Position numbers and translations under genes: made by a program. Below, one piece after another: positions 5,579 through 18,654 of a DNA stretch of 64,000 nucleotides (its first letter is position 1; the number at the start of each line of letters is the position of its first letter). Below the pieces are notes generated by a model. That model was given only the letters and a program-made list of their open reading frames with translations. It was not told the origin of the DNA and did not search any database. The DNA lies in sequence record SRR20825019_3098; one strand, given 5' to 3'.

Positions 5579-6046
5579 ATGAAATACCGAATGCTTACAA
5601 CGGAAGAAATGGACATCTTTGATGAGGATTTCAAACATTTTCTAATTACCAATGGAGTTTCAAATGAAACATGGTTGGAATTGAATGAAAAAAACGTTGA
5701 AGGAGCAGCACAATTAGTGGAAATTTTCTCAGATTCCGTACTTCAAAAGGTATATGAGAAAGTGAGGTTTATTGAACATCGTTCAAAAGGAGCTTGTATG
5801 GTTTTTAAACTCGAATCGGAAGAAATAGAGCTTATTTCCATTTCTGCAAAAAATGAAACTGTTGATTTATCAACGCCAGAATCAATTCACGATGCCTTGG
5901 TGAACCAACCGAATTCACTTACAGTTTTCAAAACGAAGAAACATTATTCGAAAGAAAGAGAGCAGGAGATCCATACCATGCTCGAACAAGGCTGTGTGAA
6001 CTCAAGTGAAGCGTTTTGGGTTTTATTGGAAAAGGTAGTGGATTAA
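5579..6046 (+). CDS. Conserved Bacteroidota hypothetical protein (DUF6495-like)
   Basis: MKYRMLT.EE...F..FL.NG....W N-terminus; TAATTTTG box at 5567-5574. Confidence 0.7.
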   Translation: MKYRMLTTEEMDIFDEDFKHFLITNGVSNETWLELNEKNVEGAAQLVEIFSDSVLQKVYEKVRFIEHRSKGACMVFKLESEEIELISISAKNETVDLSTPESIHDALVNQPNSLTVFKTKKHYSKEREQEIHTMLEQGCVNSSEAFWVLLEKVVD

Positions 6047-6048
6047 AT

Positions 6049-7563
6049 CTATTGTTTCACGACTCTGTGAAAGCTCGTCCCTTCCGAAGATTCTATAGTT
6101 AAATAGTACATTCCCGTTGGAAAGCTTTGAAGATCAAGAATGTGAATTGACCCATTGAATTGAAGATCACGAAGAACTTCCTGACCTCGACTGTCGGTTA
6201 TATGAAGCAAATCGTCTTTTTCTAAATTGTTTAAATAGAAAATTCCGTCAGATGGATTTGGATGAATTCTGATTTCAGATCCGCTTGTTGAGTATTTACT
6301 TCGTGTAAATTTTGCAATCCAACCATCCGTTTTTCCTTCTAGTCCGTGTACAATACCATCTACGGAGTTCGTTGCGCCACCAAAAACGAGCTCGTCAGCA
6401 TCTGTTAAATAAACAGCTTCGATTCTATCAAAACCAGCGTCTCCGAATAAAGTAACCTCCGAGATTGTATTGTTTTCAATGGATGCTACCCAAATGTCGG
6501 TGTTTCCCTTGGAAAGTGAATTTCCGATTGAAATAGAGTTGGTTGTTCCAGCAATAATTACTTGACCTAACGAATTTTGATAGAGGGCTCCAGAAAAATC
6601 GCTGCCTGCGCTGCCAATCGTTTGAGACCAATTGAGTGTTCCTTCTAAAGAAACTTCCAATACCCAAGCGTCTGAAAAACCGGCATTCTCTACGATATCG
6701 ATATCCTTTGAAAAAGTATTTCCTGCGATGAGCAAGTTTCCGTTCGCGGCTAAGATAATGTCGGAACTGTAATCTGCTGCAAATCCACCAAAATTTTCAG
6801 ACCAAATAACCTGTCCTGTTTGTGAAAGTCGAAGGAGAGAAATATCAAAATCGCCGTAATTTTGGAGAATGTCTCTATCGTATGAAGAAGAATGACCTAA
6901 AATGATAATTTCTTCAGAAGGCAATTCAATTAATGTGGATGCGCGGTCTTCATCGTTTCCACCAATATTTCTTTGCCAAAAGATTGTTCCATCAGGATTC
7001 ACATCGATTAACCACATATCGAACTGACCGTAATTAGAGGTTAAATCACCAGATTCTGATCGTGAATCTCCGAACAAGAGAAAGTGCCCATTTTTTCGCT
7101 CAATAAGTGATGTTGGAAGGTCTATAAACTCACCACCGTAGGATTTTGTCCACTCCAAATTACCATTTAAGTTTAATTTAAAGAGGTAGAAATCATCATA
7201 CCCTTTGTTTCCAGAAAAGTATCCATTTTGCGAATCAGATGCCGCAAGTACAAGCAGGTTGTTGTCAGAAGAAACAATAAGGTCGATTCCTCTATCATTG
7301 CTCTCTCCTGCGAAAATTTTAGTCCAAGTGATTTGTCCGTCTGAAGTCATTTTGGAAACAAACATGTCATAACCTGTGAGAGAATTCTCAGACTGGATAG
7401 TTCCAGTTACGTAGTAGTTTCCGTCTGCGTCTGTATCAATTGCCGTAATCTCATCATCGCCGTGTCCACCAATTGTTTCCTGCCAAAGTATTCTTCTCTC
7501 TTGCGCCGAAATGCTCGATGAAAACATCGCCAGCAAAACAAGAAGAGTTAACAATTTGGACAT
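6049..7563 (-). CDS. T9SS type-A cargo with repeated W-x(3-4)-GG-x3-D beta-propeller-type units
   Basis: Signal peptide, about 7 repeats, C-terminal IHPNPS...GMYYLTI sorting domain. Confidence 0.85.
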   Translation of the reverse strand: MSKLLTLLVLLAMFSSSISAQERRILWQETIGGHGDDEITAIDTDADGNYYVTGTIQSENSLTGYDMFVSKMTSDGQITWTKIFAGESNDRGIDLIVSSDNNLLVLAASDSQNGYFSGNKGYDDFYLFKLNLNGNLEWTKSYGGEFIDLPTSLIERKNGHFLLFGDSRSESGDLTSNYGQFDMWLIDVNPDGTIFWQRNIGGNDEDRASTLIELPSEEIIILGHSSSYDRDILQNYGDFDISLLRLSQTGQVIWSENFGGFAADYSSDIILAANGNLLIAGNTFSKDIDIVENAGFSDAWVLEVSLEGTLNWSQTIGSAGSDFSGALYQNSLGQVIIAGTTNSISIGNSLSKGNTDIWVASIENNTISEVTLFGDAGFDRIEAVYLTDADELVFGGATNSVDGIVHGLEGKTDGWIAKFTRSKYSTSGSEIRIHPNPSDGIFYLNNLEKDDLLHITDSRGQEVLRDLQFNGSIHILDLQSFPTGMYYLTIESSEGTSFHRVVKQ

Positions 7564-7658
7564 ATTAGATAAGATTAAAGAAATGATTAGTTAACAATTT
7601 AGTAACATTGAATGAACTTTCCAAATATTTCGATCATTTTCTCTTGTATCTTTGTCTT

Positions 7659-8267
7659 GTGAAAGAGGAATTGATACGTCGTTTTGGAGAACATCGAGTG
7701 CATGATGTTCCTGTTGGTGAAGGAGAAATCCCTCTTTTGATGCTAGATTTGGAGCTTCAATCGCCAGTAAATGTGCTAGTTACGAATGGTTTGAGAGACT
7801 ATCGTATGCCTGTTTCTGAGAAATGGCAGGGACGAGAATCTACGGAGCTATTTTTCTGTTTACCAAGCTATTGGGACTGGGAGGAAATGGATAATCCACG
7901 TACAAATTGGATATTTCCATGGATTCAACGACTAACAAAATTTGTTCAAGAAAAGGAAACATGGTTTGGTCCAGGTCACACAATGCCTTGCGGAGCAGAA
8001 ATGAATTCACTGTCTGAAACAATGCTTCAGAATCATTTCTTTTTAATGGATCCAATTCTTTTGGAAAATGAGCTCGCACCAATCCAAGTTGGTGATAAGA
8101 AGGTGCATTTTTTAGCCATTGTCCCTATTTTTTCGGACGAGTTGGATTACAAACATTCCAAAGGCACAAACAAATTGATTCAAAAATTGATTCAAAAAGG
8201 AGTGTCGGAAAAACTCGATGATTTTAGAGCAAGCTCACTAAAGAGTAAGTGGAGATTACGCCGCTAA
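7659..8267 (+). CDS. Suppressor-of-fused (SUFU) domain protein
   Basis: VTNGL..Y.MP, TELF, W..PWIQRL, TWFGPGHT, FLAIVPIF.DELDYK; GTG start inferred from TATCTTTG at 7647-7654. Confidence 0.82.
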   Translation: MKEELIRRFGEHRVHDVPVGEGEIPLLMLDLELQSPVNVLVTNGLRDYRMPVSEKWQGRESTELFFCLPSYWDWEEMDNPRTNWIFPWIQRLTKFVQEKETWFGPGHTMPCGAEMNSLSETMLQNHFFLMDPILLENELAPIQVGDKKVHFLAIVPIFSDELDYKHSKGTNKLIQKLIQKGVSEKLDDFRASSLKSKWRLRR

Positions 8268-8411
8268 TCTTAATAGTTCGATTACATCCAGTTAATTTTC
8301 GGGGCTAATATTAAAAATCCTCAACAAAGACTTAATAGAACAACGTTGATCGTTTAATCGGTTTAGTTCAATGTCTTCAGACCTTTGCGTAAAATTTTAA
8401 TACGCAAGCGA

Positions 8412-11400
8412 ATGAAAAGAAAGTTACTAGTTGTAGTTGGGTTGATTCTGGCAAATCAAGCAACCGCGCAAATCGGGTTTGATCCTGAAATCGAGTTTGA
8501 ACTTATTCCAGATGTTGTCGTAGTACCATCTTCTCCTCTTCAAAGCCAAGTGGTTTTCATCGGTGGACATGATACTGTACAAACAACGGCCACTTATGGC
8601 AATCCTGCTGGAGCCTATCCTGCTAAACAATGGCATGATTTCATCGGATTTACTCCCGATACGGATCCAGGAACACAAGACCTTGGATGGATTTCTGTAA
8701 ACCATGAGATGGTTTCGAGTGATGCAAACATTGGCGATGGTGGTGGAATGACGGTGTTCAAAATTCGTCGTGATGCCGAAACAGATTCTATAATAATAGT
8801 AGAGCAAACCTTGGCGGATGGAAGAACAGGGAAATTCTTCAACGTTGATTTTGCAAATACAGTGGGTGAAACAGGAATGAACTGTGGAGGAATTGTATCA
8901 GAAGTAGATGGAAGAATCTGGACAGCAGAAGAATGGTTTAGAGAGAATAACGCATCTATCTTCGATAACGGAAATGGTGTATTGGACACAATGGATGTAA
9001 CAATTGCTGGATCTGGAATTTCTATCGCGGATGGTGAAACAATCAAGAAGTACGAAAATTTCAACTGGATGGTGGAAATTGATCCACGTGAAGCAAAAGC
9101 GATCAGAAAACAATACAACTGGGGGCGTCAACCGTTCGAAGGTGGTGTGGTAATGCCAGACAATCAAACAGTGTATACTGGAGCAGATGACACTCCTGGA
9201 ATTTTGACAAAGTTTATCGCCGATACTCCTGGAGATTTTACGCAAGGTCAACTTTTTGCATACAGACAAGATGATCAACACTTGCGCCTTTCACATAAAA
9301 GCTCAGTAGTTGATGCATTCTCTGAAATTTCAGCGTATGATTCAATCAACCAAAGAATCTATTCAACGAATAGCGATCAAGAAGGATTATTAGTGCTTTC
9401 TGTTACTGCCAACGGATTAGATAGCCTTGATTTTATCGATCTCAGCATGTACGGATCTCCAACTTCAGTGGCTGTTGCGAATGGAATAGTGGCTGTTGCC
9501 GTTCCAGATGCGATTGCACAGAATAACGGACAAGTAATTTTCCTTGATAATGCATTTACAGTTCTGAATACAGTAACAGTTGGTGCATTGCCAGATATGG
9601 TAACATTCACACCAAATGGCGATTACGTGTTGGTAGCCAACGAAGGTGAACCAAACAATGATTACACTGTAGATCCTGAAGGTTCTGTATCTATCATCGA
9701 TATTTCTGGAGGAATTGCTTCAGCAACAGTTCAAACGGCTGGTTTCGGAGCATTCACAATTGGATCACTTACGGATGTTAGAATTTTTGGAAACGGAACA
9801 ACAAACGTTGCTGCTGATCTTGAGCCTGAGTACATCGCGGTGAATGGAGCTTCTACAACGGCATACATTTCACTTCAAGAAAACAATGCAATCGCAGTAC
9901 TTGATATTGCTACGGCGACAATTACAAGCATATTCGGATTGGGATATAAAGATTTGGGAGACCCAGCGAATTACATTGATGGAACGGATGATGACGGTCT
10001 TCAAGGAAATTTTAAAGATTGGGACAACGTATATGGAATGTATCAACCAGATGCCATTACGATTGTAAACATTGGAGGAACGGAATACTTGCTTACAGCG
10101 AATGAAGGAGATTCACGCGATTATTCAGCGTATTCAGAAGAAGCGCGCGTTTCTGACATAGTACTCGACCCAACAGTATTCCCAAATGCAGCAATCATGC
10201 AACTGGATGAAGAGCTTGGAAGATTGAAAATCACGACTTCACAAGGAGACATTGACAATGATGGTGATTATGACGAACTCTACACGTATGGAGGGCGCTC
10301 ATTCTCTATCTGGGACCTCAGTGGAAACTTAATTTTCGATAGTGGAAATGAATTCGGGTCTATTCTAGCAAATAACTTTTCTGGCAATTATGCTACTAAT
10401 CGTGATGATGACAAAGGTTCTGAACCAGAATCAATTGCGGTTACGCAAATGGGAGGAAAGATGTTTGCTTTTATTGGGTTGGAAAGAGCCGCTGGAGTGA
10501 TGGTGTACGACATCACGAATCCTGCAAATGCATTCTTTGTGAATTATTTCAACCACAATGGAGTAGATCAAAGTCCTGAGGGATTACTTGTGATTAACGG
10601 TTCAAACAGTCCTTCTGGAAAACCAATGTTGATTTCAACAAACGAAGCGGACGGAAGTTATTTTGGATCAGTTTCAGCATACAACATCAATGGTTTTGAT
10701 GGAGAAAAATGGATTGCAATGGACAATGCTTCTTTCGATAAAATGCTTGATTTCAAAGAACAAGCAATTAACGCAGGAGCAACAATGTTTGACCGTTTAG
10801 AGTGGGTGGCATACAATCAGCAAGATGGAAATGTATACATCACAGAAACAGGGTTGGATAAGCCAGCACAATCATGGAACGACGATGCCATTCGAGGTGG
10901 AGTTGTAGCTCAACACCATGAAGACAGAGCGACAGCTCAAGGAACAACAGTGAAATCGTCAAACTATGTAGATTACTACGGACGTGTTCTTCAATTGGAT
11001 GTTACAAATGATGAGATTTCAGTAGCATTGGCTGCAGGACCTGAATTCAATAGCCAATCTGAAGTGTCGATTTCAAACTATCCTTCTGTTCACCTTTCAA
11101 ATCCTGATGGGTTAACATTCATGACCGTTGGATCGAAAACATACATGGTGATTTGTGAAGATTTGAATGGAACGTCTTATGGAAGAATGCCAGCAGGAAT
11201 CAGCAATCGCTCATGTGAAATGTTCATTTTAGACATGGACATCGTTACACCAGAATTGAATGACCTTGTGAGAATTGCACAAGTACCAGTTGGAGCTGAA
11301 ATCACAGGGGCAAGAGCAACTCCAGATGGAAAAACATTGTTCTTCAACTCGCAACATCCAAGCAGCACGAATCCATTCCCATACAACAACTCATTAACAA

Positions 11401-11663
11401 TCGCAGTAACAGGTTGGGATAAACTAGGAGATGTTGGATTAGAGGAAAATGCAGAAAACAACAATGGATTCAACGTATATCCAAACCCAACATCGCGCTT
11501 TATTTATTTCGATAAAGTGACTGACGTAGCATTGTACGACATGCACGGAAAGTTGATGCTTGTGGAAAGAAACACAAATATGATTGATATTTTGAATGTT
11601 GCTCCAGGAACGTATTTTTTGAAAAATGCTGAAGGACAAACGAAAAAATTGATCATTCAATAG
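8412..11663 (+). CDS. phoX: PhoX-family (DUF839) alkaline phosphatase with a nested choice-of-anchor-I domain and T9SS type-A CTD
   Basis: PhoX motifs VNHE, NCGG, WTAEE, GRQPFEG ... DRLEW, NPDGL, ICED, EITG, NSQHP; insert motifs GALPDMVTF, ANEGEP, LEPEY, YQPDAI, ANEGDSR, GGRSFSI, DDKGSEPE, GLER, SPEGL; C-terminal YPNP. Confidence 0.85.
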   Translation: MKRKLLVVVGLILANQATAQIGFDPEIEFELIPDVVVVPSSPLQSQVVFIGGHDTVQTTATYGNPAGAYPAKQWHDFIGFTPDTDPGTQDLGWISVNHEMVSSDANIGDGGGMTVFKIRRDAETDSIIIVEQTLADGRTGKFFNVDFANTVGETGMNCGGIVSEVDGRIWTAEEWFRENNASIFDNGNGVLDTMDVTIAGSGISIADGETIKKYENFNWMVEIDPREAKAIRKQYNWGRQPFEGGVVMPDNQTVYTGADDTPGILTKFIADTPGDFTQGQLFAYRQDDQHLRLSHKSSVVDAFSEISAYDSINQRIYSTNSDQEGLLVLSVTANGLDSLDFIDLSMYGSPTSVAVANGIVAVAVPDAIAQNNGQVIFLDNAFTVLNTVTVGALPDMVTFTPNGDYVLVANEGEPNNDYTVDPEGSVSIIDISGGIASATVQTAGFGAFTIGSLTDVRIFGNGTTNVAADLEPEYIAVNGASTTAYISLQENNAIAVLDIATATITSIFGLGYKDLGDPANYIDGTDDDGLQGNFKDWDNVYGMYQPDAITIVNIGGTEYLLTANEGDSRDYSAYSEEARVSDIVLDPTVFPNAAIMQLDEELGRLKITTSQGDIDNDGDYDELYTYGGRSFSIWDLSGNLIFDSGNEFGSILANNFSGNYATNRDDDKGSEPESIAVTQMGGKMFAFIGLERAAGVMVYDITNPANAFFVNYFNHNGVDQSPEGLLVINGSNSPSGKPMLISTNEADGSYFGSVSAYNINGFDGEKWIAMDNASFDKMLDFKEQAINAGATMFDRLEWVAYNQQDGNVYITETGLDKPAQSWNDDAIRGGVVAQHHEDRATAQGTTVKSSNYVDYYGRVLQLDVTNDEISVALAAGPEFNSQSEVSISNYPSVHLSNPDGLTFMTVGSKTYMVICEDLNGTSYGRMPAGISNRSCEMFILDMDIVTPELNDLVRIAQVPVGAEITGARATPDGKTLFFNSQHPSSTNPFPYNNSLTIAVTGWDKLGDVGLEENAENNNGFNVYPNPTSRFIYFDKVTDVALYDMHGKLMLVERNTNMIDILNVAPGTYFLKNAEGQTKKLIIQ

Positions 11664-11754: not shown

Positions 11755-13665
11755 ATGAAAAAAGGAATACTCTTAATTTTTGCTGGACTCATCGGAGCAC
11801 TTTTGTCCGTTCAACAATGGAAAAACGATCCATTGGTGAATGAATTACCAGTGGTTTCTGTGAGAAAAATGCTGGCGAACGAATTGAAAGTGCTAACGAC
11901 TCAGGTAGATCAACTGAAAGCCACAGATTGGGAAAATACATCCCAAGTTGAAAAACGCTTCGCTGAGGTTCGAACAACATTTAAACAAGTAGAATTTCTC
12001 TTGGCCTATCTCGATCCAGAGTTGTTTAATCAAAACCTGAATGGAGCGCCACTTCCAAAGTTGATGAAGAATGTGGCGGATGTTCAAATCATTCAACCGA
12101 AAGGATTACAGCGTATGCAAGAATTGGTGTATGAGGAAAAACTTGATAAAAAGGAATTGTTGGATCAATTGGACAAGTTTGGATTTCACATTTCGAAAAT
12201 TTCTGAAGGGATGCTTACCAGACAAATTTCCGACCCTGTTGTATTTGAGTCTATTCGTTTCGGATTAATTCGCATTTTTTCATTGGGTGTTACGGGATTC
12301 GATTCTCCCGCGAATACTGAATATGCTTTGGAAGAAAACGCACGATCTCTGGAAGGAATGCAGAAAGTTGTGAATTACTATTCTCCGTATTTAGAAGAAA
12401 CGATAAAAGCAGAATTGGATCGACTTTTTTCAAATGGAATTGCCCAATTAAGAACAAACGATTTTGATTCATTTAATCGATTAGCGTTTTTAACCGAGGT
12501 CATTAACCCTCTTTGGAAATTGACATTAGAAGCCCAACAAAAGCTAAACGTGGAACTTCCGCATCAACGAAATGTGTTGCCAACGGCAGTGAACTATCAA
12601 GCGGATAATATTTTTGCGAATAACTTTATCGACGTTTCTTATTATGCGGATTTTATCAATGCAGAAAAACAGCAAGAAGCGATAGAATTAGGGCGATTTT
12701 TGTTTTTCGATCCTATTTTGTCTGCGAATAATCAACGTGCATGCGCCTCGTGTCATCAACCAGAGAAAGCATTCACCGACGGATTTCCAACAAGTCTAAA
12801 CACGGACCGTAAAACACCAGGCTTGCGAAACGCACCAACACTCCTAAACAGTATTATTTCCGCAGATTATTTCTATGATTTGCGAGCAGATCGACTTTCA
12901 CAGCAGATGGATCACGTGGTGTTCAATCCAACAGAATTCAACACGGATTACGGTAAAATTATCGCGAAATTGAAACAGTCGGAAGAATACACGGAATTAT
13001 TCTCGAAGATCTACGGGAACGAGGGAATCACAAAAAATTCAGTAACCAACGCGGTTGCCAATTATGTTGGATCGCTTTATGGATATAACTCTGTGATGGA
13101 TCAATACGTGCGGAATGAACTTCCAAAAATTCAACCAAGTGTAGAAAGAGGATTTAATCTCTTCGCCGGAAAAGCGGGTTGTGCGACGTGTCATTTTATG
13201 CCAACATTTAGCGGAACAGTTCCTCCGAATTTTGAAGAATCTGAAACAGAAGTCCTTGGAGTTCCTAATAAGTCGAAAGCGCCTTTTTCGCTCGATTCGG
13301 ATTTGGGAAGGTATGCAGGAAACAATGCAAAAGAGCGCGTAGAGTTTTATAAAGGTTCGTTCAAAACACCTACACTCAGAAACATTGAGTTAACAGGACC
13401 ATACATGCACAACGGAGTTTATCAAACACTCGAAGAAGTTGTAGAATTCTACAATAATGGTGGCGGAATTGGTCTTGGATTCGACGTCCCTTTCCAAACA
13501 TTGCCAGGAGATTCGCTTCACCTGACGAAAAGAGAGCAACGCGATTTAATTCAGTTTATGAAAGCACTCACGGATACTTCGGGCATGACTTACAAACCCA
13601 CAAGGCTTCCTTCATTTCCAGAAAGCACACAGTTAAACAAACGAAAAATCGGCGGAGAGTATTAG
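11755..13665 (+). CDS. Di-heme cytochrome c peroxidase/MauG-family protein with a helical (imelysin-like) N-terminal domain
   Basis: LGRFLFFDPILS, CASCH, RNAPTL, RGFNLF.GKAGCATCH, FKTPTLRNI, PYMHNG; N-terminal membrane anchor; GLQ..QE and GVTGFD motifs. Confidence 0.9.
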   Translation: MKKGILLIFAGLIGALLSVQQWKNDPLVNELPVVSVRKMLANELKVLTTQVDQLKATDWENTSQVEKRFAEVRTTFKQVEFLLAYLDPELFNQNLNGAPLPKLMKNVADVQIIQPKGLQRMQELVYEEKLDKKELLDQLDKFGFHISKISEGMLTRQISDPVVFESIRFGLIRIFSLGVTGFDSPANTEYALEENARSLEGMQKVVNYYSPYLEETIKAELDRLFSNGIAQLRTNDFDSFNRLAFLTEVINPLWKLTLEAQQKLNVELPHQRNVLPTAVNYQADNIFANNFIDVSYYADFINAEKQQEAIELGRFLFFDPILSANNQRACASCHQPEKAFTDGFPTSLNTDRKTPGLRNAPTLLNSIISADYFYDLRADRLSQQMDHVVFNPTEFNTDYGKIIAKLKQSEEYTELFSKIYGNEGITKNSVTNAVANYVGSLYGYNSVMDQYVRNELPKIQPSVERGFNLFAGKAGCATCHFMPTFSGTVPPNFEESETEVLGVPNKSKAPFSLDSDLGRYAGNNAKERVEFYKGSFKTPTLRNIELTGPYMHNGVYQTLEEVVEFYNNGGGIGLGFDVPFQTLPGDSLHLTKREQRDLIQFMKALTDTSGMTYKPTRLPSFPESTQLNKRKIGGEY

Positions 13666-14969
13666 CTACGAATGCGTTTTCTGTAAGATAAAGCGCGATC
13701 CTTTAACTCCAAGACGCGCGGAGTTATTGTGCGAATTAAGAGAACCGTCCAGATCCAAAGTAAGGGATAAAAAACCATATTGAAACGGTCGCCTTGCCAG
13801 AAAGAAATGGAAGAAGTGATGTTGATATACCACACAGTTCCTGCGCAGAAAATAAGAGGAATATTCATTTTTCGAATAAATAAAAGCGAAATGAAGCTAA
13901 GCCAAAAAATGAACGACTGTGAGTTCCGGTTCTGAGTGATTGTGCGGTTGAACATTGAATCAGCTCGTTGTTGTGTTTTAATAACAGGATGGTACAATTT
14001 TACGCCACTGTAAGGATATGAACCGCCATAAGTGTTTTCACTCTGGTTCGTTTTGATACATTTATAAGTGAGTTTGGGATGTTTTAACACTTTACTTTTG
14101 AGATCATCACTTCCGAGTTGAGCTCTTTCGCGGTTGGACAAGGCCCAAATTTCGTTATTTCTTACTGCGACTACATCAGTAATTTCCTGTCCGGTAATTT
14201 CCGCTTCGATCTGCGCTCCAGCATACAAATACCAAGTAATACTATCAATATAAGAGGGTTTGAAGTTTCCATATTCGCTCTTCATCCATGCGCACTGAAC
14301 AATAAGCAACAGAACAGCAGCAGAAAACCAAACGTTTCGAAGAGCTTGCCCACGGTATTTTATGAGTGCAAAGAGGATGGAAAGTAAAGCGAGGTAGTAA
14401 AATCCTGGTCGAATTAAGACGAGTAAGACAAGCACAGCCACACCCGTTAAGAAATAGCTAGCGTTTTTCGTTTTAGCAAAGCGCGAAAAGAGATAAACAA
14501 TAGCTACCAATCCAAAAGCGGTGAGGATTTCGGTGAGTACCAGAAATATGAAACCATAAAAGCTGAAAAGAATAAAAAGTGCGCAGGTTAAAATGAAGGG
14601 GAGAATAGACCGATCAAACCATTGTTCAAGCGTTTTAAAACACAACAGAAGCATCGCTAACCAAGCAAAAACATTGAGCGTAATCCCCCAATTAACATAG
14701 TCATGCGTATCCATGTCCATGAACAAATTGGGCAGGCCAAGAAGAAAAGCATAGCCTAACGGACGAGTGTAATGAGGCGTAAACTCCTTAAACAACATAT
14801 CGGATGCGTCAATGTATGAAATCGAATCCGGAGGAATAAAGGAAGTGCTAAACATCACCTGGGAAAACCCAAACATGGAATATACCAAATAGAGAAAACC
14901 AATTCCAAGAAGCAGAAGTGCTATGGAAAGACCATGACGTTTTAACACTGTTTGGAATAAACCGTTCAT
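13662..14969 (-). CDS. Polytopic membrane protein, GT-C fold (ArnT/PMT-like) glycosyltransferase candidate
   Basis: About 10 TM helices, PDSISY loop after TM1, RPLGY, LTE, LIRP, GDRF. Confidence 0.55.
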   Translation of the reverse strand: MNGLFQTVLKRHGLSIALLLLGIGFLYLVYSMFGFSQVMFSTSFIPPDSISYIDASDMLFKEFTPHYTRPLGYAFLLGLPNLFMDMDTHDYVNWGITLNVFAWLAMLLLCFKTLEQWFDRSILPFILTCALFILFSFYGFIFLVLTEILTAFGLVAIVYLFSRFAKTKNASYFLTGVAVLVLLVLIRPGFYYLALLSILFALIKYRGQALRNVWFSAAVLLLIVQCAWMKSEYGNFKPSYIDSITWYLYAGAQIEAEITGQEITDVVAVRNNEIWALSNRERAQLGSDDLKSKVLKHPKLTYKCIKTNQSENTYGGSYPYSGVKLYHPVIKTQQRADSMFNRTITQNRNSQSFIFWLSFISLLFIRKMNIPLIFCAGTVWYINITSSISFWQGDRFNMVFYPLLWIWTVLLIRTITPRVLELKDRALSYRKRIRS

Positions 14970-15024
14970 TAGTTTGAGTAGTGAATGAAGCACTAAAGTT
15001 AACGAATGGTATCTTAGTAAAAAA

Positions 15025-16011
15025 CTATTGAACGAGTTGTCCAATATACAATTGTGCAATTTGAACCGCATTTGTTGCTGCTCCTTTGCGCAAGTTATCC
15101 GCTACAATCCATAGGTTGAGCGTATTTGGTTGACTTTCATCTCTTCTGATTCTGCCCACGAAAACGTCGTCTTTTCCTTCCGCATATTTCGGCATCGGAT
15201 AGCTGTTCGTTGTTGGGTCGTCTTTCAACGTAATTCCACTTTGAGCATGCAAGAGCGCGCGTACTTCGTTCAAATCAAAATCTTCTTCGAATTCAATATT
15301 TACCGATTCTGAATGTCCACCAACCACGGGAACACGAACCGCAGTTGCAGTTACATTGATATTCGGATCGAGAATTTTCTTCGTTTCATTTGTAAGCTTC
15401 ATCTCCTCTTTCGTATATCCATTTTCTAAAAATGAATCACAATGAGGGATACAATTTTTGTCGATTGGATAAGGATAGGCCATTTCACCAGAAGTTCCAT
15501 TGCGCTCATTTTCCATTTGAGTGGTTGCTTTCACGCCCGTTCCTGTGATAGACTGATAAGTAGAAACAACAACGCGTTTTACTTTGTAACGCTCATGTAA
15601 CGGTTTCAATGTCAAAACCAATTGGATGGTGCTGCAATTCGGATTGGCAATAATTTTGTCTTCTGGAGTCAATAAATGACCGTTAATTTCAGGAACGATT
15701 AATTTTTTCGTTGGGTCCATTCTCCACGCAGAAGAGTTGTCGATAACAACAGTTCCAGCTTCCGCAAATTTTGGAGCCCATTCGAGCGAAGTTTCTCCGC
15801 CTGCAGAAAATATAGCAAGATCAGGGCGCATTTCAACCGCAGTTGACAATCCAACGATCGTGTATTCAAGTCCACCGAAGTCTAACTTTTTCCCAATTGA
15901 TTTTTCTGATGCCACTGGAATTAGTTCCGTGATCGGAAAATTGTGTTCTCTCAACACTTTTAGCATAACATTCCCTACCATCCCGGTAGCTCCAACAACA
16001 GCAACTCTCAT
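15025..16011 (-). CDS. asd: Aspartate-semialdehyde dehydrogenase
   Basis: VVGATGMVG, IDNSSAWR, IANPNCSTIQ, ATAVRVPV.GHSE, DNLRKGAATNAVQI. Confidence 0.97.
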   Translation of the reverse strand: MRVAVVGATGMVGNVMLKVLREHNFPITELIPVASEKSIGKKLDFGGLEYTIVGLSTAVEMRPDLAIFSAGGETSLEWAPKFAEAGTVVIDNSSAWRMDPTKKLIVPEINGHLLTPEDKIIANPNCSTIQLVLTLKPLHERYKVKRVVVSTYQSITGTGVKATTQMENERNGTSGEMAYPYPIDKNCIPHCDSFLENGYTKEEMKLTNETKKILDPNINVTATAVRVPVVGGHSESVNIEFEEDFDLNEVRALLHAQSGITLKDDPTTNSYPMPKYAEGKDDVFVGRIRRDESQPNTLNLWIVADNLRKGAATNAVQIAQLYIGQLVQ

Positions 16012-16083
16012 AGATATTGACTTAGAAGATTCAAAATTGTACAACACAAAATTAGTATATTTACCTTCATTGACATGGATACT

Positions 16084-18654
16084 ATGCGGCACATTTTAAC
16101 CTTAGTTGTTATTTTAACACATACACTACTTTTTTCACAGGTTTCTGACGATTTTTCCGACGGAGATTTTACGAATGGAACAGCTTGGTCAGGCACAAAC
16201 GGGGACTACAGCGTTAGTGCGGCATTTGAATTGCAGTTGACAAGTGCAGCCGCAAATACCTCTTATCTTTCAACACCACATTTATTAAGTTCATTGGACG
16301 ATAAAGAATGGAGATTCAAAACGAGGCAGACGTTTTCTCCTTCGGGGAGTAATTATGGACGAATTTATTTAGCCGCAGCGAGCGCAGATTTGAGTACCAA
16401 CCCAGACGGTTTTTATCTTCAACTAGGAGAAGCGGGTTCTGCCGATGCAGTGCGTTTAATCAAGCGTGAACTGGGAGTAAACACAGAAATAATTGCAGCT
16501 ACTTCAGGTCAAATTGCAACGAGCTTTTCAATAGGAATTCAAGTGGTAAGAGATAACACAGGGTTGTGGTCTCTGTCGATTGATCCAAGTGGTGGATCGG
16601 CTTACGTATTAGAAGGAACGGGCACAGAAGCAACAAACTTGCTTGGAACACACGTTGGAATGTTGCAGACCTACACAATCAGTAATGCCAATAGCTTTTT
16701 CTACGATAATGTTTATGTTGGGGACGAAATTCTAGATCTCACACCACCCGTTTTAGTTTCCGCAACAGCCATAAATCCAAACTTAATTGACGTGCTTTTT
16801 GACGAAACTTTGGATCAAATTTCTGCTGAAAACGCTGCAAATTATGATATTCAACCTTTTCTATCAGCAAGTTCTGTGACCTTAGATGGAATCAATCCTG
16901 CACTTGTTCACATTGTACCAACGTCAGCGTTAACGAACGGTTCAACATATACCCTTTTTTCAACGGGGATTGCTGATGTTGCTGGTAACGTTTCTGCTCA
17001 ACAATCGGTGCAATTTGGCTTCTTCATTCCTGAATTACCTTCCCCTGGAGATGTAATAATCAACGAGTTTATGTGCGACCCGACGCCAGTTCTTGGACTT
17101 CCGTCTATTGAGTTTGTTGAAATCTATAACAGAAGTTCAAAGGTATTTGACGTTACTGGATGGAAACTAGGAGATGCTTCCTCGGATGGAACAGTCACTG
17201 CAGAATGGCTCCTCCCTGGAAATTATCTAGTGCTCACAGCAACAGCTAATGTGGATTCATTTGCGGTGGCAACGGCAGTCACGAGTTTTCCAAGTCTGAA
17301 CAATGCCGGTGATGCGATTATTTTAAGAGACAATAACGGAGTTAAATTGGATAGCATTAGTTACACGCTAGATTGGTACAACGATGATCTCAAAGAAGAC
17401 GGCGGATATACAATCGAGCGAATTAATCCAAACGATCCGTGTTCTGACATTCTGAATTGGTCGGGAAGTACTCACCCATCTGGTGGAACGCCTGGAAGCG
17501 TAAACTCAGTTAATAATATCACTCCAGATACACAAGCACCGTCGATAAGTCAACTCATTGCGCTCCCACCAAATTACCTAGAAGTGTATTATTCGGAAGG
17601 AATGGACTCGCTTTCCTTGGCAAATGCTGTTATTACAGTTAGTCCTACATTATCAGTGGCTAACAATTACGTTTTGAGTGCGTTTGCGGATAAGCATATT
17701 TTAGAATTTGGAGAAACAATTGCTGGATCACAAGCGTACACCATCGAGCTTCAGAACATTGCCGATTGTTGGCTAAACACGACAACACTAACGGGTACTT
17801 TTGCACTTCCTGAAGATCCAGTGGTTGGAGATATAATCATTAATGAAATTCTGTTTAATCCAGTGAATGGAGGATCAGATTGGGTGGAAGTCTACAATAC
17901 TTCTTCTAAGCTAATCAACCTTAAAAACTGGCAACTTGCTAATTTTGATGACGATACGATTAGTAATATCAAACAATTTACAGGTAATTTCTTACTGTAT
18001 CCGGGTTCTTATGCGGTCTTTGGAAAAGATTCCGCGCAGATTTTACAACATTATCCAGCGGCTGTTCCTGGTCGTTTTGCCCAAATGGATCTCCCAACGT
18101 ATTCAAATGATTCTGGAACAGTTTATCTCATGTTCAACAACCTACAAATGGATCATGTTTCCTACCAAGATGATTGGCATTTTAAATTGCTTGATAGTGA
18201 TGACGGCGTTTCTTTAGAGCGTTTGGAACCTACAGGAAAGTCGAACGACAAAAACAATTGGCATTCTGCGGCAGAAGCAATCGGTTTTGCAACACCGGGA
18301 AGAGTAAATTCTCAATATTTCCCAGCTATTTCTAACGGTGAATTTAGCTTTACAAGTACTACAATTTCACCCGATAATGATGGTTATGAAGATGTTCTTC
18401 AAATCAATTATCGATTAGAAAGTTCGGGTTATGTCGGCACATTCACTGTTTACGACGATCGCGGAAGAATGGTTGTAAAAGTAATTGAGTCGGAATTACT
18501 CGGCGCAAGCGGAAGTTTTGTTTGGGATGGATTACGAGAAAATCAAACAAAGGCATCCATTGGAACGTATGTTGGCGTGTTTGAAGCCTTCGATTTAGCC
18601 AACGGAATTGTGTTTGCTCAAAGAAAAGCATTCGTGGTTGCTGGAAAACTATAA
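16084..18654 (+). CDS. Secreted protein with two lamin-tail domains, Ig-like domains and a FlgD/T9SS-like C-terminus
   Basis: Signal peptide; two IINE....P...E/DWVE.YN and LxN(D/A)G..I.L units; SPDNDGYED..WDG C-terminus. Confidence 0.8.
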   Translation: MRHILTLVVILTHTLLFSQVSDDFSDGDFTNGTAWSGTNGDYSVSAAFELQLTSAAANTSYLSTPHLLSSLDDKEWRFKTRQTFSPSGSNYGRIYLAAASADLSTNPDGFYLQLGEAGSADAVRLIKRELGVNTEIIAATSGQIATSFSIGIQVVRDNTGLWSLSIDPSGGSAYVLEGTGTEATNLLGTHVGMLQTYTISNANSFFYDNVYVGDEILDLTPPVLVSATAINPNLIDVLFDETLDQISAENAANYDIQPFLSASSVTLDGINPALVHIVPTSALTNGSTYTLFSTGIADVAGNVSAQQSVQFGFFIPELPSPGDVIINEFMCDPTPVLGLPSIEFVEIYNRSSKVFDVTGWKLGDASSDGTVTAEWLLPGNYLVLTATANVDSFAVATAVTSFPSLNNAGDAIILRDNNGVKLDSISYTLDWYNDDLKEDGGYTIERINPNDPCSDILNWSGSTHPSGGTPGSVNSVNNITPDTQAPSISQLIALPPNYLEVYYSEGMDSLSLANAVITVSPTLSVANNYVLSAFADKHILEFGETIAGSQAYTIELQNIADCWLNTTTLTGTFALPEDPVVGDIIINEILFNPVNGGSDWVEVYNTSSKLINLKNWQLANFDDDTISNIKQFTGNFLLYPGSYAVFGKDSAQILQHYPAAVPGRFAQMDLPTYSNDSGTVYLMFNNLQMDHVSYQDDWHFKLLDSDDGVSLERLEPTGKSNDKNNWHSAAEAIGFATPGRVNSQYFPAISNGEFSFTSTTISPDNDGYEDVLQINYRLESSGYVGTFTVYDDRGRMVVKVIESELLGASGSFVWDGLRENQTKASIGTYVGVFEAFDLANGIVFAQRKAFVVAGKL

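Follow-up and report, generated by a model that had tools for sequence, protein, structure and literature searches.

The stretch of DNA analysed here, SRR20825019_3098, is 64,000 nucleotides long, and we refer to the whole of it as the window. At 8412-11663 its plus strand carries a gene for a Sec-exported, phosphate-scavenging protein that is secreted by the type IX secretion system (T9SS). In this protein a complete beta-propeller of the choice-of-anchor I (COA-I) family is nested within a hairpin turn of another propeller, that of the phosphatase PhoX. PhoX is a major route for the recycling of organic phosphorus, and its requirement for iron is thought to couple the phosphorus and iron cycles. 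The carrier of the gene is an uncultured, marine-type bacterium of the Bacteroidota.

Domain layout of the gene

The reading frame is uninterrupted on the plus strand from 8385 to 11663, and the ATG at 8412 is the start shared by all homologues in the alignment. GC content is even over the whole gene, 8412-11663. The gene and its parts are as follows.

8412..11663, plus strand: gene for the nested PhoX/COA-I protein, a T9SS cargo; 1083 amino acids (aa) plus stop (open reading frame, translation and domain profiles)
8412..8471, plus strand: Sec-type signal peptide, aa 1-20, MKRKLLVVVGLILANQATAQ, from reading of the sequence, with a putative cleavage site
8472..9275, plus strand: N-terminal half of PhoX, aa 21-288, with the motifs NCGG (C158), TAEE, GRQPFEGG (E243) and GADD (D259) (PF05787 and alignments)
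9276..10703, plus strand: inserted seven-bladed beta-propeller of the COA-I/MSP130 type, aa 289-764 (NF038117, PF22494 and AlphaFold2)
10704..11441, plus strand: C-terminal half of PhoX, aa 765-1010, with the motifs DRLEW (R795), NPDGL, CEDLNG, GAEITG and QHP (PF05787 and phmmer)
11475..11660, plus strand: T9SS type A C-terminal sorting domain (CTD), aa 1022-1083 (PF18962 and TIGR04183)

The Pfam profile of PhoX, PF05787, finds its match in two separate pieces. Residues 152-273 correspond to profile positions 158-273 and residues 762-983 to profile positions 301-514; the two halves score 27.6 and 67.5 bits, respectively, and the total is 83.5 bits against a cut-off of 24. The segment between them is matched by PF22494 (choice_anch_I) over residues 299-747, with an E-value of 3.9e-106 and 356 bits against a cut-off of 32. 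The NCBIfam model NF038117 is matched as well, by residues 304-745 and along its entire length (1-458 of 458), with a score of 511.6 bits (cut-off 300). At the C terminus, Por_Secre_tail (PF18962) matches residues 1022-1082 with 37.1 bits against a cut-off of 27, and TIGR04183, the model for T9SS type A sorting, scores 35.2 bits against 23.

Full-length matching and seven blades are common to the inserted propeller and to the COA-I family (NF038117/PF22494), which includes the metazoan protein MSP130. Members of that family are usually N-terminal, with a sorting or anchor signal directly after them, whereas the COA-I domain of the window protein is internal, and its T9SS CTD follows the host domain, so that the C-terminal half of PhoX lies between the two. 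The family name presumably refers to such a C-terminal sorting or anchor signal.

The signal peptide region is modelled as a helix (residues 4-20) of low confidence, and reading of the sequence shows that a twin-arginine motif is absent from it. This sets the window protein, with its Sec-type signal and T9SS sorting domain, apart from classical PhoX, which PMC11098088 describes as predicted to use twin-arginine translocation for export.

The insertion site

A homologue search over 5.8 billion proteins returned nested relatives of the window protein together with insert-less PhoX proteins that end in a CTD and are approximately 604-617 aa long. We aligned five of these insert-less proteins with five nested ones. 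Over the flanks their identity to the window protein is 63-68%, and they show a single clean gap of approximately 476 residues, which lies between '...Y.YK.D.P' and '.KW[VI]...'. Because the gap falls there, the insert is delimited as aa 289-764, or 9276-10703 of the window. The turn at this site is 2-4 residues long in the insert-less relatives; in the window protein a propeller of 476 residues takes its place.

The plain T9SS PhoX proteins of the Bacteroidota (such as P0080 and P0101, L039 of Putridiphycobacter roseus, L040 of Crocinitomix algicola, and Fjoh_2478) form the subfamily to which the PhoX part of the window protein belongs. They share with it the Sec signal, the T9SS CTD and a downstream MauG-like gene, and they differ from it in their length of approximately 604-617 aa and in having a hairpin turn instead of the second propeller. 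A profile of 21 uninterrupted PhoX sequences aligns continuously across the junction to the PhoX of Pseudomonas fluorescens (4amf/3zwu, E 1.4e-27), a distant homologue (3zwu, 4amf and 4alf) that is covered over profile positions 148-510. By this alignment the insertion site is a hairpin loop at about positions 326-340 of the 4amf chain, where the loop of P. fluorescens PhoX has approximately 15 residues.

The connectors between the two propellers are short. In the AlphaFold2 model the last element of the N-terminal half of PhoX is strand 275-284, which is followed by 7 residues and then by strand 292-300 of the insert. On the other side, strand 753-760 of the insert is followed by 6 residues and then by strand 767-770 of PhoX. 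Since strands 242-247, 253-258, 266-272 and 275-284 alternate, with E243 and D259 at one end, the insert probably departs from the PhoX propeller at the face that bears the active site.

The full protein is modelled with a mean predicted local distance difference test score (pLDDT) of 88.6 and a predicted TM score (pTM) of 0.85, from an alignment of 69 sequences. The 10-residue blocks containing the junctions have pLDDT values of 93-95, and those of the PhoX flanks are mostly 88-96. Modelled alone, the insert reaches a pLDDT of 90.8 and a pTM of 0.92. Its best match in the VIA structure comparison is YncE of Escherichia coli (Z 32.2, root-mean-square deviation (rmsd) 2.3 over 294 residues), which is tied with other seven-bladed propellers, including WD40 proteins, at Z 29-32. 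Within the full model, likewise, residues 288-762 match seven-bladed propellers (YncE at Z 31.8, rmsd 2.4 over 294 residues). When the whole model is compared by VIA-align, all of the matches listed (50 rows) fall on the insert, and no PhoX structure is among them. A sequence search of the PDB returned for the C-terminal half only P. fluorescens PhoX (3zwu/4amf, phmmer E 2.6e-8), and for the insert a weak match to a YVTN S-layer protein (E 0.007). The identity of 63-68% to uninterrupted PhoX, taken together with the confidence of the model, suggests that the rejoined flanks form one PhoX propeller, which in that family is six-bladed.

For the whole model, the best Foldseek matches were all multi-propeller proteins. 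This resemblance to DDB1, CPSF160 and SF3b130 was set aside as uninformative, with Foldseek E-values of approximately 1e-17 but TM scores of 0.10-0.25 and identities of 8-10%. The likeness consists in having several propellers per protein, and concerns the type of domain only, not homology or a shared function.

These results bear on a preliminary description of the gene, made from its letters alone, which had proposed a loop insertion rather than a tandem fusion. The proposal holds, as both the PhoX profile and the insert-less homologues run on across the junction; the split PF05787 match that had been expected on either side of the insert was obtained, along with the full-length COA-I match, and alignment to insert-less Bacteroidota PhoX gives one clean gap in five proteins. 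The same description had taken the insert to be a whole COA-I propeller and had placed a T9SS CTD at the end of the protein. The first point agrees with the complete NF038117 match and with the seven blades given at high confidence by AlphaFold2 and by the fold searches, and the second with two profiles above their cut-offs. All of the motifs it quoted are present in the translation, and its bounds for the insert, approximately 9280-10695, lie close to the approximately 9276-10703 given by alignment. With E-values of this size, chance matches play no part.

Distribution of the nested layout

We classified 268 fetched proteins by four segments of the window protein. The order of domains is that of the window protein (PhoX N-half, COA-I, PhoX C-half, CTD) in 51 of them, and a further 16 have a COA-I match that is split in two. 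Plain PhoX accounts for 44 proteins (39 with a CTD and 5 without), tandem COA-I-PhoX for 23, and tandem PhoX-PhoX-CTD for 7; many others are COA-I-only proteins. Under a stricter requirement for coverage, which leaves 126 PhoX units, 41 units are simple nested, 23 are nested with a further insert, 37 are plain, 16 stand in multi-PhoX proteins, and 9 belong to tandem COA-I-PhoX proteins.

The tandem PhoX-PhoX-CTD proteins include P0069, P0073, P0076, P0126 and P0127, of about 1130-1230 aa. Three longer proteins, P0122-P0124 (1631-2257 aa), contain three or four PhoX units, including partial repeats, and the longest may be artefacts of repeat assembly.

The loci were surveyed in GTDB, with one genome per species. 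This confirmed 397 relatives, from which the 80 best loci were classified. Among these 80, 13 are nested (L001-L012, L025), 10 are nested and have a lamin-tail domain in addition (L013-L021, L023), 3 are nested and cut at a contig end (L022, L024, L043), 1 is tandem (L067), 52 are plain, and 1 is of undecided layout (L047). The nested loci all come from metagenome-assembled genomes (MAGs), most of which are labelled Crocinitomicaceae, Fluviicola, Brumimicrobium, Salibacteraceae, Parvicellaceae or Flavobacteriales. Nested PhoX occurs in uncultured Flavobacteriales of marine and fresh waters; Putridiphycobacter roseus and Crocinitomix algicola, both cultured, have plain PhoX.

The closest relative of the window protein among the loci listed is L009, at 81% identity. 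The MAG records of L009, L021, L024 and L056 are labelled Henriciella pelagia, Chitinophaga pinensis and Hyphobacterium; because each carries a T9SS phoX locus of the Flavobacteriales type, these bin labels look unreliable.

In three genomes with a nested gene (G001-G003), that gene holds the sole COA-I domain. These genomes have no second close PhoX, and each contains only a distant match, of approximately 31-35%, elsewhere. In the databases, nested proteins go by the names 'choice-of-anchor I family protein', 'DUF839 domain-containing protein' and 'secreted PhoX family phosphatase'. The preliminary description had asked whether the nested layout was already common and described. It is indeed widespread in sequence databases; no published description of it was found in the literature, and the layout is apparently unpublished.

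In some relatives a third domain is placed inside the second. P0022, P0027 and their kin, of approximately 1280 aa, carry a lamin-tail domain (PF00932, residues 472-584) within COA-I within PhoX. The lamin-tail domain sits where the insert has a poorly structured loop, at about aa 451-468 of the window protein. The nested gene, with one whole propeller set inside another, is a rare case in nature, and relatives extend it by one further level.

Other proteins are enlarged at the same loop. P0041 has an insert of approximately 170 aa there, with no match in Pfam, and in P0131 and P0155 a COA-I domain is apparently nested within COA-I. Because the inner COA-I of P0131 and P0155 uses the same loop as the lamin-tail domain, this loop may be a hot spot of insertion.

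Evolutionary history

For the COA-I domain we built a FastTree tree of 222 rows on the 290 columns at the C-terminal end. One clade, with a support of 0.988, contains every nested insert. This clade also holds seven rows that our script labelled 'alone', most or all of which look like nested genes that have been cut off. Nearest to it are three stand-alone proteins and then the clade of tandem COA-I-PhoX proteins.

The tandem proteins (for example P0075, P0079 and P0087, of approximately 1110-1150 aa) join the same two families in one secreted protein, and their COA-I domains are a near sister group of the nested inserts. They differ in that COA-I comes first and is followed by an uninterrupted PhoX, and their PhoX units form a separate clade.

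The PhoX flanks give another picture of the nested forms, which here fall into three clades with plain PhoX between them (FastTree on 126 rows, and IQ-TREE on 54 of those). Constraining the 24 nested rows to a single group lowers the log-likelihood by 100.45 units (p-AU 0.0128, in the approximately unbiased test). This value comes from a quick LG+G4 search in which the group was chosen with the tree already known and 72 of the 126 rows were left out, which counts against the reading built upon it. The simplest reading of these sequences is that one insertion occurred in a PhoX lineage of the Flavobacteriales, and that it was followed by several precise losses, or by recombination of the central segment. 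A single gain with apparently several clean removals would make this family a ready-made system for studying how insertions of whole domains are tolerated.

Function of the two propellers

In the PhoX head, residues C158, E243, D259 and R795 of the window protein are matched in the 3zwu chain by positions 179, 273, 292 and 385, so that the equivalents of C179, E273, D292 and R385 are kept. None of the four varies in the nested set or in the alignment of nested and plain forms, and R795 is also invariant over 69 sequences. We take C179 and E273 of P. fluorescens PhoX to be ligands of the cofactor, which, as Yong and colleagues reportedly established in 2014, consists of two Fe and three Ca ions. 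Because C158, E243 and D259 belong to the N-terminal half and R795 to the C-terminal half, the active site of PhoX needs both flanks. In PMC11098088, R385 and D292 are given as active-site residues of PhoX. We strongly infer from this conservation that the PhoX head is catalytically active and Fe/Ca-dependent; the two flanks would rejoin to make a single propeller with that cofactor.

Conservation extends to the inserted propeller. Across the window insert, 8 nested and 24 stand-alone COA-I sequences, 52 columns are invariant. They are mostly D, E, R or K, and they lie mostly in the repeated motifs NEG[ED], EPE and PD. Every residue that is invariant in the COA-I family is retained in the window insert; among them are E411, E413, E471, E473, E490, D547, E565, D567, R569, R629, D666, E671, E673, E691, R692, E723 and E745. 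Judged by its sequence, the insert appears to be under selection.

Several database names link COA-I to phosphatases, in line with the preliminary description, by which COA-I domains occur in proteins annotated as atypical alkaline phosphatases/nucleotidases. P0198, a cyanobacterial protein that consists of COA-I only and is 52% identical to the insert, is named 'alkaline phosphatase' by NCBI, and an Atlas cluster composed of PF22494 proteins carries the automatic name 'Predicted alkaline phosphatase'. PF22494 is also matched in the Synechococcus elongatus control genome. Fusions to nucleotidase domains were found as well. We picked 25 long COA-I proteins out of the 150 best representatives; the extra domains seen in this set are 5'-nucleotidase_C (8), Phytase-like (6), Metallophos (2), PhoA (1), PhoX (1) and EEP (1).

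Published accounts of the atypical alkaline phosphatases called PhoAaty suggest what such a domain might do. According to PMC4548154, these enzymes of phytoplankton and cyanobacteria match cyanobacterial putative phosphatases and 'marine animals', have a glycosylphosphatidylinositol (GPI) anchor, and share D/E-rich and Pro-Asp motifs; Lin et al. (2015) give four conserved motifs for them. Characterised members are ACAAP of Amphidinium carterae (ADT91623.2, as cited in PMC6156274) and PhoA of Synechococcus elongatus PCC 7942. By PMC6723241, ACAAP that was made as a recombinant protein and purified responds to Ca, Mg and Mn with activation, and not to Zn. By description, these features are consistent with COA-I/MSP130. 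The PhoAaty enzymes are stand-alone proteins, GPI-anchored or secreted, whereas the COA-I domain of the window protein is nested.

We favour, with a probability of roughly 0.5, the reading that the window protein is a nested two-head enzyme in which the COA-I insert provides a second catalytic site, as conserved sequence and analogy with PhoAaty suggest. The insert would then be a divalent-cation (Ca) dependent, iron-independent phosphoesterase of the PhoAaty kind, and the protein would have two heads with different metal needs or different ranges of substrates. A more specific proposal is that COA-I/MSP130 proteins are Ca-dependent, iron-free phosphoesterases of the PhoAaty family, and that the window protein is a natural two-site enzyme with an Fe/Ca head and a Ca-only head. 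This we regard as doubtful. Under it, both heads would be held by a rigid tether of two strands, on the same face.

Nesting is a strong genomic clue to the biochemical role of COA-I/MSP130. A widespread form of PhoX with a second, possibly iron-independent, phosphatase-linked propeller would alter how counts of phoX in metagenomes are read. If the specific proposal is true, a two-site enzyme would hedge the scavenging of phosphate against scarcity of iron, or would pass products from diester to monoester between its sites. MSP130 proteins, which belong to animal biomineralisation, would moreover gain their first biochemical function, as phosphatases, like the tissue-nonspecific alkaline phosphatase of bone.

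Against the two-head reading stands a second one, in which the architecture is the same and the COA-I insert is non-catalytic. The insert would be an accessory module that binds Ca2+, the surfaces of minerals or particles, or anionic organophosphate polymers, and that keeps the PhoX head on its substrate or supplies it with calcium, as the binding modules of glycoside hydrolases do. This is a serious competitor, which we place somewhat short of an even chance. The following points tell in its favour and weigh against a catalytic insert. The only structural treatment of COA-I/MSP130 that we found, PMC11878542, describes MSP130 as a seven-bladed propeller and, in its passages on function, proposes Ca2+ binding, itself a prediction, and no catalysis or other enzyme activity. 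We found in the literature no enzymatic test of any bacterial COA-I domain. The kinship of PhoAaty and COA-I is putative, the links between them being indirect. Fusion to five unrelated phosphoesterase folds is equally expected of an accessory binding module, and a domain that has partners in no fewer than five unrelated families of phosphoesterases, and that combines with PhoX in tandem as well as by nesting, shows the typical pattern of a portable helper. No specific solved relative or hydrolase stood out for the insert in Foldseek or VIA, where generic seven-bladed propellers lie approximately 1-3 Z units apart; the Foldseek matches are WDR5 and similar proteins at 8-12% identity, and the nearest folds, those of YncE and WD40 proteins, are non-enzymatic or generic propellers. 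The relatives with a lamin-tail domain have added it inside COA-I, and we take lamin-tail to be, as usual, a binding domain. Finally, some lineages have cleanly lost the insert and retained PhoX with its MauG-like partner.

The accessory reading has its own difficulties. Charged residues make up most of the 52 invariant columns, and their position on successive blades is more usual for a metal-dependent active site than for a surface that binds. Stand-alone COA-I proteins carry the annotation of alkaline phosphatase. Moreover, if PhoAaty and the COA-I family are the same, then a purified recombinant member has been active, going by PMC6723241.

Psip1 was considered as an identity for the insert and rejected, since PMC11098088 describes it as lacking a conserved domain and as having a PhoX-like, six-bladed fold.

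A third reading is that the insertion turned PhoX into a scaffold, so that the split PhoX is inactive and COA-I is the only functional part. An insertion of 476 residues in a propeller blade could disturb folding, and both halves have modest Pfam scores. Uninterrupted relatives, however, also score low on PF05787 (97.4 bits for P0080), and therefore this subfamily of PhoX is simply distant from the model. The four residues of the PhoX head, and many more PhoX columns, are invariant in the nested forms; the flanks keep their identity to plain PhoX and are modelled at high pLDDT; and the MauG-like partner is retained in 22 of 22 nested loci. We consider an inactive PhoX improbable.

That the gene is a chimera of assembly, or two genes fused by a frameshift, is scarcely credible: no point in support of it was found, although the window appears to be a contig derived from a metagenome, and the frame is open throughout with even base composition. 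Of the 268 fetched proteins, 64 show the layout at full length, and it recurs at 23 complete loci in named MAGs, one of which is a closed Fluviicola chromosome. The stretch is found without differences on contigs of four public runs from two studies (three runs and one). In the three runs it lies on a contig of 77,878 bases, and these runs may be where the window itself comes from; in the run of the second study separate, independent pieces span the two junctions (9183-9577 and 9573-10802), so that the misassembly at the junctions raised as a concern in the preliminary description is excluded.

The MauG-like partner and the gene neighbourhood

Directly downstream of phoX lies a second gene on the same strand.

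11755..13665, plus strand: gene for a MauG/MbnH-like di-haem enzyme of 636 aa, with the motifs CASCH and CATCH (PF03150, E 3.4e-42)

The protein has an N-terminal extension of approximately 300 aa. It scores 177 bits on TIGR04039 (MbnH; cut-off 363) and 161 bits on TIGR03791 (MauG; cut-off 444), in both cases far too low for the model. By sequence it is placed in the MauG/MbnH superfamily, and it is neither of the two named equivalogs.

In all 70 loci with at least 1 kb of 3' DNA, the gene that directly follows phoX is a homologue of the MauG-like gene (ten loci cut short were left out). By class, it is present in 12/12 nested loci, 10/10 loci that are nested with a lamin-tail domain, and 48/48 plain loci. 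A scan for promoters and terminators showed no terminator-like site between phoX and the MauG-like gene, and returned fewer sites than it did in shuffled sequence. In Flavobacterium johnsoniae the corresponding pair, PhoX_like and MauG_like (Fjoh_2478/Fjoh_2477), is up 12.5- and 9.6-fold, respectively, on depletion of phosphate, as given in PMC8115612.

The invariable presence of a MauG-like partner beside a PhoX that is exported by Sec and T9SS points to a step in the maturation of the Fe/Ca cofactor. With export by Sec, the oxidised Fe/Ca centre of PhoX would have to be put together in the periplasm, where the di-haem enzyme would help. PhoX would thus probably be matured in the periplasm, aided by the co-transcribed MauG-like enzyme.

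Upstream of phoX, the interval 5579-8267 contains a DUF6495 gene, a gene on the minus strand for a repeat protein with a T9SS CTD, and a gene for a SUFU-domain protein, after which phoX follows. The same synteny of DUF6495, repeat protein and SUFU genes occurs in L001, L004, L007 and L009-L012, and was not seen beside plain PhoX loci.

On the other side, the minus strand has an open reading frame of 469 aa (13662-15071) that runs towards the MauG-like gene and shares 4 bases with it; neither Pfam nor NCBIfam gives a match for this frame. Further along, 2.4 kb downstream, window positions 16075-18654 encode another T9SS cargo, which has two lamin-tail stretches, a Big_5 domain and a CHU_C sorting domain.

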